Source of the DNA: Escherichia coli
GTDB taxonomy: Bacteria > Pseudomonadota > Gammaproteobacteria > Enterobacterales > Enterobacteriaceae
Direction: 5' to 3' (one strand)
DNA length: 38,946 nt
Assembly: GCF_003334255.1 (NCBI RefSeq)
Contig: NZ_QOWU01000055.1
The translations under genes were made by a program, and so were the position numbers. The notes under the pieces are model-generated. The model saw nothing but the letters and a program-made list of their open reading frames with translations. It made no database searches and had not been told where the DNA came from. The stretch's first letter is position 1; each line of letters begins with the position of its first letter. Of the stretch, positions 22,132-26,885 are shown piece by piece.

Positions 22132-23372
22132 CAGGGTTTTACCCCCGTGTTTTCAGTTTCTACCCGATCCTGCGTTTCCATTGTCGGTTGTGCGGGCGGA
22201 TCAACCTGCGCCAGACGTGGCGTGTGTGCCGGAAGCCAGCCAACCAGCGCCGGGAAGTGGCGTAAAAAGTGGAACGCCAGTACGCTTTTGGTCAGGTTCC
22301 ACCAGGTGCGTTTGGGCAGCATGGTTTCATCCACCTGCTGACAATCTGCGGCAATAATGCCGTTCAGATTATCGCGCAGCGTCTGGTTAAAATGACGATC
22401 GTGGATGATGACATTTGCTTCGAGATTCAGTGACAAACTGAGCGGATCGAGATTACTGGACCCTACTGTCGCCCAGTGATCGTCCATCAATGCCACTTTG
22501 CCGTGGAGCGGGCGGCGGCGGTACTCAAAAACCTGAACGCCGCCTTTAACCAGATAGTTATACAGCAAGCGCGCACCGACTCTGACAATCGGCATATCCG
22601 GTTCGCCCTGAATGATCAGTTTGATCCGCACCCCGCGCCGTGCCGCTTTACGCAAGGCGTGTAAAAATCGATAGCCGGGGAAGAAGTAGGCGTTGGCGAT
22701 AATCACTTCCCGCCGCGCCTGAGTGAGCATTTTCAAATAATGGCGTTCAATATCATCGCGATGTTCTTCGTTATCGCGCCAGACCAGCAATACCTGCGCT
22801 TCTCCCGGCTGGCGGTTCTCTTCCGCTTTGTGATGACGTCGCCACCAGCGTCGTGCCGCGCTCTGTCCAGGCAGGTTTTCCAGCTCAAACTGGAGAATAT
22901 CTTCGACAATCGGCCCTTCAAGGCGTACCGCGTAATCCTGTTTAGCCTCTGGACCGTAGCTGGACATATGCTCGGCGGAGTAATTCAGCCCGCCAATAAA
23001 GGCTATACGCGCGTCGATCACCACAATTTTGCGATGCATCCGGCGAAACACATTGGTGCGCATACCAAAAAGGCGAGGGCGGGGATCGTAGTAGCGGAAC
23101 ACTACGCCAGCTGCCGTCAGTTCATTGACAAACTCATCGCTGAGATCCGGCGAACCGTAGCCATCCAGCAAGACTTCCGCTTTAACCCCGCGTTGCGCTG
23201 CTGCCAGTAGTGCCGCATGCAGTTGTTTGCCGACGTCATCCTCAAACCAGATAAACGTTTCAAGAATGATGCGTTCTTGTGCCTCGCCAATCGCCTTAAA
23301 CACCGCGGGATAATATTGCTCGCCGTTTTCCAGCAACTGGATCTTATTGCCTTCGCGCCAGCTACATTTCAT
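22131..23372 (-). CDS. clsB: Cardiolipin synthase B (phospholipase-D superfamily, two HKD motifs)
   Basis: 413-aa ORF with HRKIVVID and [12 protein letters not shown] motifs. Confidence 0.9.
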
Positions 23373-24130
23373 AAATGAATCTCCGCACTTAAAGGGGCAT
23401 GATCAGAAAGGTGTCGCCATGTCCGCAGCGGCAACGCGGTTGGCGCGCTGGCGCTGGCATTTTTGACGTAGATCCTGTCCAGTCGTAGTAGAGGAAATTG
23501 CACCGGAAACGTGCGCGCCGGGCGTCCGTGGGCGCGGGTAAAAATCTCATCCAGTCCGGCCTGCACTTTTAACGGATGATTAGCTTTTTGCCGCCAGTCA
23601 TTGAAATCACCCGCCACCAATACCGGTTCGCCGTCCGGTAGCTCATTCACCCATTCGGCGAGCATCGCAAGCTGCGCCTGACGGTGCGCCTCACGCAGGC
23701 CCAGATGTACGCACATCACATGAATCGCTTTTCCGGTCATCGGCGGCACAATGCGGCAGTAGAGCACGCCGCGCTTTTCCGCACCATCGACCGAAACATC
23801 GCGATTCTCATAATGTTCAATGGGATAACGCGACAGTACGGCGTTGCCGTGATGCCCTTCCGGGTATACGGCATTGCGACCGTAGGCAAAATCGCTCCAC
23901 ATAGTGTCGGCGAGAAACTCGTAGTGCGAGGTATCGGGCCAGTTTTCCACATGCAGCGGATGAACTTCGTGCGCGCCCATCACTTCCTGCAGGCAAACAA
24001 TATCGGCGCTGACGGTACGCACGGCGTCGCGAAGTTCCGGCAAAATGAAGCGTCGGTTAAACGCGGTAAAGCCTTTGTGAATATTGATGGTGAGCACCTT
24101 GAACGAAAATTGTTGTGTTTGATCGGGCAT
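23369..24130 (-). CDS. ybhP: Endonuclease/exonuclease/phosphatase (EEP) family protein
   Basis: 253-aa ORF; 4-bp ATGA overlap with the clsB start; first gene of the ybhP-clsB-ybhN operon. Confidence 0.85.
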
Positions 24131-24196
24131 AATTTTCCTGTCTTTGCCTCTTATCTCATTGAAATAGTGTAGTCGGCGTCACAAAAAGGTGCGGTC

Positions 24197-24214
24197 TTAC
24201 GGAATTTTCCGTAA
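24197..24214. promoter_or_regulatory. Inverted repeat TTACGGAA-tt-TTCCGTAA in the ybhP/ybhQ divergent promoter region (operator candidate)
   Basis: Perfect 8-bp arms with 2-bp spacer read directly; lies between the ybhP start (24130) and ybhQ start (24263). Confidence 0.4.
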
Positions 24215-24262
24215 AGTTCGGTACTCTGAGTAAGTAGAGATAAATTCTTCAGGAGAGAAGCC

Positions 24263-24673
24263 ATGAAGTGGCAACAACGTGTTCGTGTCGCAACGGGTCT
24301 AAGTTGCTGGCAGATTATGTTGCATTTACTGGTAGTGGCGCTGCTGGTGGTGGGCTGGATGAGTAAGACTCTGGTTCACGTCGGCGTGGGATTATGCGCA
24401 CTGTATTGTGTCACGGTAGTGATGATGCTGGTGTTTCAGCGCCACCCCGAGCAACGCTGGCGTGAGGTGGCAGACGTGCTGGAAGAGCTGACCACGACCT
24501 GGTATTTTGGCGCAGCGCTGATTGTGCTGTGGCTGTTGTCCCGCGTTCTGGAAAACAACTTTTTGCTGGCAATTGCAGGGCTGGCAATCCTTGCCGGCCC
24601 GGCGGTAGTGTCTTTGCTGGCGAAAGATAAGAAGTTACATCACCTTACGTCTAAACATCGCGTACGCCGCTGA
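24263..24673 (+). CDS. ybhQ: Small inner membrane protein
   Basis: 136-aa ORF with predicted TM helices; its 3' end overlaps the convergent ybhR by 39 bp. Confidence 0.8.
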
Positions 24674-25741
24674 CCCTGTCGTGGCCGTTATCACCAGTAG
24701 CGGCCACAAACTATTCCACACAATATCCAGACTCGCATCCTTCAAATAAATCTGCTTGGTAATGTCCGTAAAGTGGCGAATAGGGTTAATCCACGTCAGG
24801 TTTTGCAGCCATACCGGCATGTTTTCCACCGGAGAAACGTAACCGGAAAGGAGAATGGCGGGCATCATAAAGACAAACACGCCGATAAACGCCTGCTGTT
24901 GTGTTGAACAGAGTGATGAAATCAACAGACCGAATCCCACCAGCGATAAACCATAAATCACCATCGTAAAGTAGAACAGCGCCAGCGATCCGGCGAAGGG
25001 GATTTGATACGCCCAGATACCAATCGCCAGCACAATGGTGGCCTGGAAGGTGGCGACAATTAACGCCGGTACGGCTTTGCCGATGAAGATCTGCCAGGTG
25101 GTGAGCGGCGAAACCAGTAGCTGATCGAGCGTACCTTGTTCACGTTCGCGGGCGACGGAAAGTGAAGTGACGATCATTACGCCGATAGTGGTGATCATGG
25201 CGATCAGTGACGGCACCACAAACCATTTGTAGTCGAGATTCGGGTTATACCAGTTGCGTACCACCAGCTCGCTGTTGTTAGGTTTCGGTTTTCCTTCCAG
25301 CAGCTCCTGCTGATAATTTTTGACGATCTGTTGCAGGTAGTTGGCGGCAATTTGCGCACTGTTGGAGTTACGCCCGTCGAGGATCAACTGCAAAGGCGCG
25401 GTCTGGAAGGTATCCAGTTTGCGCGAGAAGTCAGCCGGGAAACGCACCAGTAGTAACGCCTTTTGTGTGTCGATGGTTGGGCGGATCTCCTGTGGGCTTT
25501 TCAGCAGCAGCACATGAGTAAAGGCGCTGGCGCGGGCAAAACGTTGGGTCAGCTCCACCGAATGCTCGCCGTTATCTTCATCGTAGATGGCGATGGTGGC
25601 GTTAGTCACTTCCAGCGTGGCGGCGAACGGGAACAGGATCACCTGAATTAGCACGGGTAAAATCAGAATCGCGCGGGTTTGCGGTTCGCGCAGCAACGAC
25701 TGCAACTCTTTGCGGATTAACGTCCATAAGCGATGAAACAT
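24635..25741 (-). CDS. ybhR: ABC-2 type transporter permease
   Basis: 368-aa multi-TM ORF, last gene of the cecR-ybhGFSR cluster. Confidence 0.88.
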
Positions 25742-25751
25742 GCTCTTCTCC

Positions 25752-26877
25752 CTAATCCAGCCGACGTTTGGTTTTCAGCCACGTCAGGCCGATAAACATC
25801 ACCGCCGAAGCGATCAAAAACAGCACGTTTACCACCAGCACCACTGGAATATTCCCGGCGAGGAACAGGCTTTGCAGGGTGCTGACGAAATAACGAGCGG
25901 GAATAATGTACGTCACCGCGCGGATCACCGCGGGCATACTGTCGATCTGAAAAATAAAGCCGGAAAGCATAATCGACGGCAGAAAAGCGGCGTTCAGGGC
26001 GACCTGAGCGGCATTGAACTGGTTGCGGGTAATCGTGGAAATCAGCAGCCCCATCCCCAGGGTACTGAGTAAAAACAGGCTGGAGATAAAAAACAGAATC
26101 AGCAGCGACCCGCGATACGGCACGCCGAGAATAAACACTGACACCAGCATACACAGCAACATCGCCAGCATCCCGAGAAAGTAATAAGGGATCAGCTTAC
26201 ACAGCAGCAGTTCCGTGCGGGTAATCTCCGTAGAGAGCAGAGCCTCCATGGTGCCGCGTTCCCATTCTCGCGCCACCACCAGCGAGGTGAGAATCGCGCC
26301 GATGACCGTCATGATAATGGTCACCGCACCGGGGATAATGAAGTGCTGGCTAATCGCCGCCGGGTTAAACCAGTAGCGGGTTTGTACATCAATAAGCGGT
26401 TCAAAAGTCTGCCCGTTGTCCTCCGCTCGCTGCATTTGCCAGATCTGCCAGATCCCTTCGACATACCCCTGTACAAAGTTAGCGGTATTCGGCTCACTGC
26501 CGTCGGTGATCACCTGAATCGGTGCGGTGGCGTTGGCGCGCTCCATCTGTTCCGCAAAATCCACCGGAATAACCACCAGACCGCGAATTTTCCCCGCCTG
26601 CATTTTGGCGATCAGTTCCTGACGGTTATCGCTGATGGTGGCGTCGATGTAGGGCGAACCGGTCATGGTGTGGGTGAAATCCAGCGCCGCTTCGCTACGC
26701 TGTTCCAGTAAAATCCCGACCCGCAGCTTGCTGGAGTCGAGGTTAATGCCGTAACCAAAAATAAACAGCAGTAGCAGCGGGATCACTACCGCAATCAGCC
26801 AGCTACTCGGATCGCGAACGATCTGCCGCGTCTCTTTAACGCACAGCGCCCGTACGCGACGCCAGGACAGGATCGGG

Positions 26878-26885
<8 letters not shown>
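25752..26885 (-). CDS. ybhS: ABC-2 type transporter permease
   Basis: 377-aa multi-TM paralogue of YbhR. Confidence 0.88.

Follow-up and report, generated by a model that had tools for sequence, protein, structure and literature searches.

A conserved 39-bp tail-to-tail coding overlap between ybhQ and ybhR, with probable Rho-dependent ends for both transcripts inside the partner gene

The excludon concept is said to stem from Listeria, through Wurtzel 2012 and Sesto 2013, and conserved convergent overlapping gene pairs in prokaryotes were reportedly treated by Rogozin et al. 2002. In Escherichia coli, 75 of 663 overlapping gene pairs are convergent, and published surveys hold that convergent overlaps arise via stop-codon shifts, that this orientation tolerates real, longer overlaps, and that many such overlaps are kept among close relatives only (Huvet and Stumpf 2014, PMC4161906; Palleja et al. 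2008, PMC2478687). One convergent pair, ybhQ-ybhR, is among the 165 convergent excludons that ExcludonFinder (Sanmartin et al. 2025, PMC12288877) detected in 50% or more of 58 MG1655 RNA-seq samples. Like the convergent excludons of that study, ybhQ and ybhR are opposite-strand neighbors with overlapping 3' transcripts and termination signals inside the partner's transcription unit; unlike them, the overlap reaches beyond the untranslated regions (UTRs) and includes the coding sequences. Descriptively, the pair qualifies as an excludon by its overlapping transcripts, whereas a functional excludon is defined by mutually exclusive expression and RNase III processing. Compared with typical convergent pairs, ybhQ-ybhR also stands apart in having an overlap of the same length in at least 18 named genera, the loss of which is traceable to the insertion of a repeat element.

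Two further systems bear on this locus. In the tail-to-tail pair mscL-arfA of Enterobacteriaceae, mscL mRNA rose more than two-fold once arfA was deleted and fell back upon complementation (PMC10070815). There, as at ybhQ-ybhR, one mRNA can pair through its 3' part with the 3' coding sequence (CDS) of the other; however, it is the 3' UTR of mscL that is complementary to the arfA CDS, while at ybhQ-ybhR CDS faces CDS. The second system concerns how transcripts end. By the rule that Dar and Sorek put forward in 2018, the 3' end of a Rho-dependent transcript falls just past a stable stem-loop with no U tract, and a rut site follows directly (PMC6061677). The ybhQ transcript resembles this type in its sharp 3' end past a stem-loop, the absence of a U tract, the C-rich sequence downstream and the bicyclomycin-sensitive read-through. 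It differs in that the stem-loop and the candidate rut site lie inside the CDS of a convergent gene, where they apparently constrain synonymous sites.

We analyzed ybhQ-ybhR in a 38,946-nucleotide stretch of E. coli DNA (contig NZ_QOWU01000055.1; hereafter, the window). The two genes form an ancient tail-to-tail overlap, and we consider it likely that Rho ends both transcripts inside the partner gene and that the ybhQ mRNA would then be trimmed back to a stem-loop. An earlier note on this DNA, made from the letters and a list of open reading frames (ORFs), had reported a 39-bp convergent coding overlap, and here the ORF list and RefSeq agree (Table 1). RefSeq places ybhP (-), ybhQ (+), ybhR, ybhS and ybhF (all three -) in this order, and ybhQ and ybhR are opposite-strand CDSs with common 3'-terminal nucleotides (i.e., a convergent overlapping protein-coding pair). 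The RefSeq/PGAP annotation of MG1655 holds an identical CDS pair and overlap (locus L001: 3164-3574 +, 3536-4642 -). The window resembles E. coli K-12, with 100% identity to MG1655 over positions 24100-25800, and of 5426 complete E. coli genomes, 5424 contain the ybhQ-ybhR region.

Table 1. Positions of genes, signals and transcript ends at the ybhQ-ybhR junction (window coordinates, with MG1655 coordinates in brackets where transcript ends were taken from published tables).
Feature	Position	Strand	Remarks
sigma-E-type promoter motif GGAATTT-N17-TCTGA	24201..24229	+	34 nt upstream of ybhQ ATG
ybhQ CDS	24263..24673	+	136 aa, inner-membrane protein, Pfam YbhQ PF11076; ORF list and RefSeq
Rho termination peak, ybhR operon transcript	24562 (MG1655 824929)	-	antisense to ybhQ
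ybhR CDS	24635..25741	-	368 aa, ABC-2 type permease of the YbhFSR exporter; ORF list and RefSeq
dual-coding overlap, codons in register	24635..24673	both strands	39 bp
ybhR stop TAA	24635..24637	-	complement of ybhQ Leu125 codon TTA
ybhQ stop TGA	24671..24673	+	complement of ybhR Ser357 codon TCA
conserved stem-loop (GUGGCCGUUAU-CACCA-GUAGCGGCCAC)	24681..24707	+	8 nt past ybhQ stop, in ybhR codons 345-354
C-rich, G-poor tract, candidate rut site	24690..24764	+	just past hairpin
steady-state 3' end of ybhQ mRNA	24713 (MG1655 825080)	+	Term-seq, Adams et al. 2021
Rho termination peak, ybhQ read-through	24815 (MG1655 825182)	+	antisense to ybhR

The overlap takes 13 codons from each gene, stops counted. 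Since 39 is a multiple of three, the codons of ybhQ and ybhR are in register, with position 1 opposite position 3 and position 2 opposite position 2. The ybhQ frame enters the 3' end of ybhR for 13 codons and ends where the TCA of Ser357 is read as TGA. Stops in the opposite, in-register frame are created solely by the ybhR codons TTA, CTA and TCA, which account for 16 of its 368 codons and give a chance of ~0.59 that 12 codons stay open. The existence of a 39-bp overlap is thus by itself statistically unremarkable.

To follow the overlap across species, we fetched 80 species-level loci encoding a YbhQ relative and located the ybhQ and ybhR stops in each. The overlap was exactly 39 bp in 63 of the 75 loci with both genes intact, in at least 18 named genera of Enterobacteriaceae (Escherichia, Salmonella, Citrobacter, Leclercia, Enterobacter, Kluyvera, Yokenella, Superficieibacter, Huaxiibacter, Pluralibacter, Trabulsiella, Atlantibacter, Siccibacter, Mangrovibacter, Buttiauxella, Cedecea, some Kosakonia and some Phytobacter). 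Both genes are genuine conserved ORFs whose stop positions have been kept. Conservation of the 39-bp overlap is well above chance level, and the event that first formed it is older than all sampled taxa. Among the 63 overlap loci, 61 had TCA as codon 357 of ybhR, while L067 and L079 carried CTA (Leu), which gives TAG on the other strand and retains the ybhQ stop. In Kosakonia cowanii (L052), Ser357 was replaced by Thr (ACC), the opposite-strand stop was gone, and ybhQ ran three codons longer, extending the overlap to 48 bp. These three loci demonstrate directly that the ybhQ stop is hosted by a sense codon of ybhR. The stop shifts observed were this 48-bp case and the new ybhQ stops within ERIC-like insertions described below.

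We then asked which of the two proteins constrains the other. YbhR was 368 aa long (367 in two loci), and its C-terminus (..AAY.MFRR(K/N)..) was kept in every intact locus, overlapping or not. Over the last 12 residues, mean identity to E. coli was 83% for YbhR versus 61% for YbhQ. A ybhR codon alignment over the 63 overlap loci, in which the gene-wide mean synonymous entropy was 1.24 (four- and six-fold degenerate codons) and 3% of codons were at or below 0.35, divided the overlap in two. In the proximal 18 bp, which adjoin the ybhR stop, the third positions of ybhR varied freely (entropy 1.41), and the YbhQ residues that face them (125-130) varied along with them. In the distal 21 bp (ybhR codons 357-363, YbhQ K131 to stop), third-position entropy fell to 0.29 versus 1.02 in the remaining gene, with a permutation p of about 0.01 that is optimistic because the sequences are phylogenetically related. 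This restriction was relaxed in the lineages that lack the overlap: codon F363 was TTC in 7/11 non-overlap loci versus 4/63 overlap loci, and codon A359 differed from GCG in 4/11 versus 3/63. Judged from these alignments, the YbhR C-terminus is the more constrained partner and dictates most of the YbhQ tail. Constraint from ybhQ itself appears limited to its last seven codons (K-H-x-V/I-R-R/H-stop), or else stems from an RNA feature there. The frozen synonymous sites in ybhR codons 358-363 could likewise reflect an RNA-level constraint instead of selection on the YbhQ tail.

In 11 of the 75 intact loci, ybhQ and ybhR were separated by a spacer of 2 to 206 bp. These were three loci from Raoultella, three from Kosakonia, two from Phytobacter, two from 'Enterobacter sp.' and one from a record titled Citrobacter freundii. 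Eight of them encoded a YbhQ of 142-145 aa with tails that are unrelated to that of E. coli but mutually homologous (..P.KAFGL.Q.G..AANP..HR). Both Phytobacter loci encoded a shorter YbhQ (132-133 aa), and the eleventh locus (L075) a YbhQ of 145 aa with a tail that differs from the motif at several positions. The novel tail starts exactly where the E. coli sequence meets the ybhR stop. In two of the Raoultella loci (L069 and L072), the tail-coding sequence is present again in the spacer, and after it comes the central inverted repeat of ERIC; identity to the ERIC core, which we assembled from the ERIC1R and ERIC2 primer sequences as confirmed in the literature, was 34/42 bases in L069 and 33/40 in L072, placing both among ERIC (IRU) elements. 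The remaining non-overlap loci held diverged partial ERIC copies only. The simplest reading of these sequences is that the overlap is ancestral and that an ERIC-type repeat would have inserted beside the ybhR stop, so that the ybhQ frame now ends inside the repeat. Since both genes remain intact in the lineages with ERIC-like insertions, neither the overlap nor the 12 residues that originally ended YbhQ can be indispensable.

Published transcript maps reveal where the two RNAs end. We converted MG1655 coordinates with an offset of 800367, which was derived from the printed 61-mers (50 nt upstream, the 3' end and 10 nt downstream); this layout was checked on the thrL row, and the offset on the ybhQ start via an internal 3' end 60 nt into the ORF. 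The dominant Term-seq end of ybhQ bears the class 'primary ybhQ, antisense ybhR'; the LB 0.4 sheet records 4708 reads for it, and the sheet of another growth condition 3033 (Adams et al. 2021, PMC7815308, supplementary file 1). It represents a steady-state 3' end, which could be a processing site, and lies 40 nt beyond the ybhQ stop, 6 nt beyond the stem and 79 nt into the ybhR CDS. The earlier note had argued that the two convergent transcripts must overlap, and this is borne out both by the Term-seq end, which falls past the coding overlap rather than before it, and by the listing of the pair by ExcludonFinder.

Read-through on both strands responded to the Rho inhibitor bicyclomycin. For ybhQ read-through (825182, +), reads were 73/20 untreated versus 110/119 with bicyclomycin (Rho score 3.95, p 5e-7), and for the ybhR operon transcript (824929, -) they were 99/23 versus 105/94 (Rho score 3.85, p 2e-7; PMC7815308, supplementary file 2). 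We recomputed both scores from the four DirectRNA-seq read counts; as they derive from 800-nt windows and low reads (20-120), the termination positions in Table 1 are coarse. The two genes leave no DNA between them and both lack an intrinsic terminator, and to this extent the earlier statement that the junction leaves no room for independent terminators stands. It does not hold for termination as such: each transcript has its own Rho-dependent zone inside the partner ORF, and ybhQ in addition has a hairpin-defined 3' end within ybhR.

These data support a model in which both transcripts cross the overlap and Rho probably ends each of them inside the partner gene. The ybhQ mRNA would then most likely be trimmed by an exonuclease back to the stem-loop, which would give rise to its sharp 3' end. 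The C-rich tract may act as the rut site, as its composition suggests: its C/G ratio of 3.33 is the maximum across the ybhR antisense strand (median 0.83). The tract ranked near the top in most species, non-overlap lineages included, and this ranking is confounded by conservation of the YbhR protein. We thus dropped conservation of the tract as a sign of a selected rut site, since it persists without the overlap and is confounded by the protein. With read-through that rises upon Rho inhibition and a precise 3' end past a stem-loop that lacks a U tract, ybhQ shows two of the features that Dar and Sorek describe, and we classify its 3' end as apparently Rho-dependent with a putative protective stem-loop.

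The stem-loop is the sole inverted repeat within 24550-24800. A 66-nt segment that contains its 11-bp stem (24660-24725) folded with -21.5 kcal/mol on the + strand (z -3.1) versus a z of +0.3 on the - strand. Over 72 distinct sequences, 90% of pair cells were paired, two pairs had changed on both sides, and one-sided changes mostly retained G-U pairs on the + strand. The resulting strand preference is weak (the complete 8-pair core can form on the + strand in 57 of the 72 sequences and on the - strand in 45), so the hairpin is assigned to the ybhQ transcript because of the Term-seq end and not because of covariation. The GC-core codons P347, A352 and A353 of ybhR were nearly invariant (permutation p 3e-5, again optimistic for related sequences). 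Conservation of the hairpin could partially reflect amino-acid and codon constraints on YbhR. An Rfam search of 23900-25900 with E-values up to 1 returned no match. We also considered a hairpin downstream of ybhR at 24560-24626 (+; -36 kcal/mol, z -3.5) and rejected it as not conserved, with third-position entropy of ybhQ at 1.2-1.9 in this interval, a range somewhat inflated by indels in a few species.

Expression of ybhQ appears to be tied to envelope stress. The sigma-E-type promoter motif upstream of ybhQ is the single match in the window, where 0.03 would be expected by chance, and occurs at the same position in 53/81 loci. Sigma-E induces ybhQ 5-fold in E. coli (PMC2731931), and ChIP in Salmonella placed a sigma-E peak between ybhP and ybhQ (PMC4577112). 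Because sigma-E induces ybhQ, antisense input into ybhR would depend on envelope stress. The leading alternative is a functional excludon, in which overlap, hairpin and rut site would all have been selected, and sigma-E-induced ybhQ would lower expression of the cecR-ybhGFSR efflux operon, and the reverse. The proposed route is polymerase collision or RNase III cleavage of a duplex of at least 79 nt. This alternative can draw on the documented transcript overlap and the place of the pair in the E. coli excludome, on a conserved promoter motif that together with sigma-E induction would make the antisense input conditional, on the deep conservation of the overlap, on ybhR codons 334-363 as the stretch of lowest synonymous variation within the gene, and on mscL-arfA as an E. 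coli precedent for regulation via a convergent 3' overlap. However, dual-coding constraint suffices to keep an overlap, once formed, at exactly 39 bp, and several lineages with ERIC-like insertions lost the overlap and kept both genes. Moreover, the duplex is limited to the last codons of the operon's last gene, and read-through is already cut by Rho to about a quarter. On balance, we regard a functional excludon as unlikely. Slightly more doubtful still is its specific sigma-E-controlled form, in which ybhQ antisense RNA (at least 79 and up to ~180 nt) would lower YbhR and pump output, and the hairpin and rut-like tract (ybhR codons 327-354) would have been selected to set its reach. If sigma-E-induced ybhQ did lower YbhFSR, envelope stress would be linked to drug-efflux capacity, which would be of moderate interest to the antisense and efflux fields. 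We favor the reading that the overlap is probably in the main a tolerated, frozen arrangement and not a regulatory device.

The hairpin might instead act as an intrinsic terminator in both directions, shared by the two convergent genes. Its 8-bp core stem is nearly perfectly Watson-Crick paired and could form on both strands, and it is placed at the junction of the two genes. Yet such a terminator is defined by a GC-rich hairpin with an A tract before it and a U tract after it, and no U tract follows the hairpin on the + strand (CACAAACUAUUCC; sequence past the stem AAACUAUUCC) or on the - strand (ACGACAGGGUCAGC). A consensus terminator scan did not call this hairpin and found no intrinsic terminator at the junction, only weak hairpins inside ybhQ. 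On the - strand, the hairpin lies upstream of the ybhR stop, so termination there would truncate ybhR; furthermore, read-through is sensitive to bicyclomycin on both strands. We consider a bidirectional terminator highly improbable.

Finally, the idea that one stop is wrong or that ybhQ is no real gene, such that there would be no coding overlap, recalls published surveys in which many long annotated overlaps proved to be misannotations via 3' or 5' extension (PMC4161906; PMC2478687), but it is largely refuted and deserves hardly any credence here, as both stops are read straight from the sequence, YbhQ matches its Pfam family end to end (1-132 of 132, E 2.6e-73) and has about 800 homologs that are almost all 136 aa long, the YbhR length and C-terminus are conserved in all intact loci, ybhR is frozen at the synonymous sites that face ybhQ codons 131-136, as a translated tail would predict, and the mapped 3' end of ybhQ mRNA lies beyond the annotated stop.

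The overlap itself, the overlap of the transcripts, the ybhQ 3' end and Rho dependence were already known from annotation and published tables. Our additions are incremental and concern how deeply and exactly the overlap is conserved, the driver-passenger relation of the two C-termini, the stop hosted by Ser357, the ERIC-linked loss of the overlap and the apparent constraint of the hairpin on ybhR synonymous sites. Together, these data show ybhQ-ybhR to be a real but ordinary pair and a worked example of how a convergent overlap stays in place. In this example, one gene's stop sits within a sense codon of the partner, 3' end signals appear to be written into the partner's synonymous sites, and insertion of a repeat element can dissolve the overlap and leave both genes unharmed.

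Comparison of ybhQ and ybhR loci from related Enterobacteriaceae revealed that the junction between the two genes can be occupied by ERIC-like repeats. These elements were found as a tandem pair of copies in the Raoultella loci L069 and L072, and were also present at the junction in loci L025, L027, L028, L036, L062, L074 and L075. In the lineages that carry them, the left part of the repeat encodes the C-terminal tail of YbhQ (~20 residues), which terminates within the repeat core (AAT CCC CAG AAG CAC AGA TAG). In Phytobacter diazotrophicus (L030) and P. ursingii (L031), the spacer between ybhQ and ybhR is just 18 bp and YbhQ is shorter, at 132-133 aa, with a tail whose start (..PSKSFKV) resembles the ERIC-derived tail. 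From these sequences, the junction in both species looks like the product of two steps, first an insertion and then a deletion. The 39-bp overlap is retained in P. massiliensis (L055). Four loci were excluded from the overlap counts: L005 (E. albertii), where ybhQ is truncated at codon 15, and L020 (Leclercia NCTC13032), L034 (Kluyvera) and L045 (C. amalonaticus), where ybhR is frameshifted or truncated. These broken genes could be pseudogenes or assembly errors.

Just 5′ of the overlap, a strong fold within ybhQ was predicted for the plus strand (−36 kcal/mol, z −3.5), against z −0.5 on the minus strand of the same stretch, making it strand-specific. Third positions of ybhQ are free to vary among species across this stretch, so the structure appears not to be conserved. 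Underlying it is a repeated coding sequence of ybhQ (an 11-residue stretch). Two Salmonella enterica YbhQ variants (P0036 and P0045; 138 and 140 aa) carry an LA or LALA insertion within LLALAGLA, a repetitive segment. These insertions suggest that slippage occurred in the same repeated coding sequence that gives rise to the predicted structure. Within the overlap itself, the palindrome GCGTACGC encodes R-V-R in YbhQ and A-Y-A in YbhR, and may be a chance occurrence.

Features in and around ybhQ and ybhR (window positions unless a locus handle is given)
Feature	Position	Strand	Remark
clsB/ybhP overlap	23369-23372	same strand	4 bp
Sigma-E-type promoter motif GGAATTT-N17-TCTGA	24201-24229	+	34 nt 5′ of ybhQ ATG
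Internal 3′ end	24323	+	60 nt into ybhQ ORF
Predicted structure	24560-24626	+	within ybhQ
Perfect 8-bp palindrome GCGTACGC	24660-24667		frozen distal half of ybhQ-ybhR overlap
ybhF/ybhS overlap	26878-26885	same strand	8 bp, by RefSeq ybhF coordinates
ERIC-like repeats	L069 2936-3118; L072 2939-3144		ybhQ-ybhR junction, Raoultella

The adjacent operons contain two ordinary same-strand overlaps, clsB/ybhP and ybhF/ybhS; in the mechanical ORF list, ybhF begins 15 bp further upstream than in RefSeq.

A published Term-seq table (PMC7815308) places a 3′ end inside ybhQ at MG1655 824690 (2172 reads, Rho score 0.6, class 'internal'), which could represent premature termination or a processing site. 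Upstream of the gene, the sigma-E-type motif is the single match across the 39-kb window (0.03 expected), and its position is conserved upstream of ybhQ in 53 of 81 related loci, consistent with papers that assign ybhQ to the sigma-E regulon.
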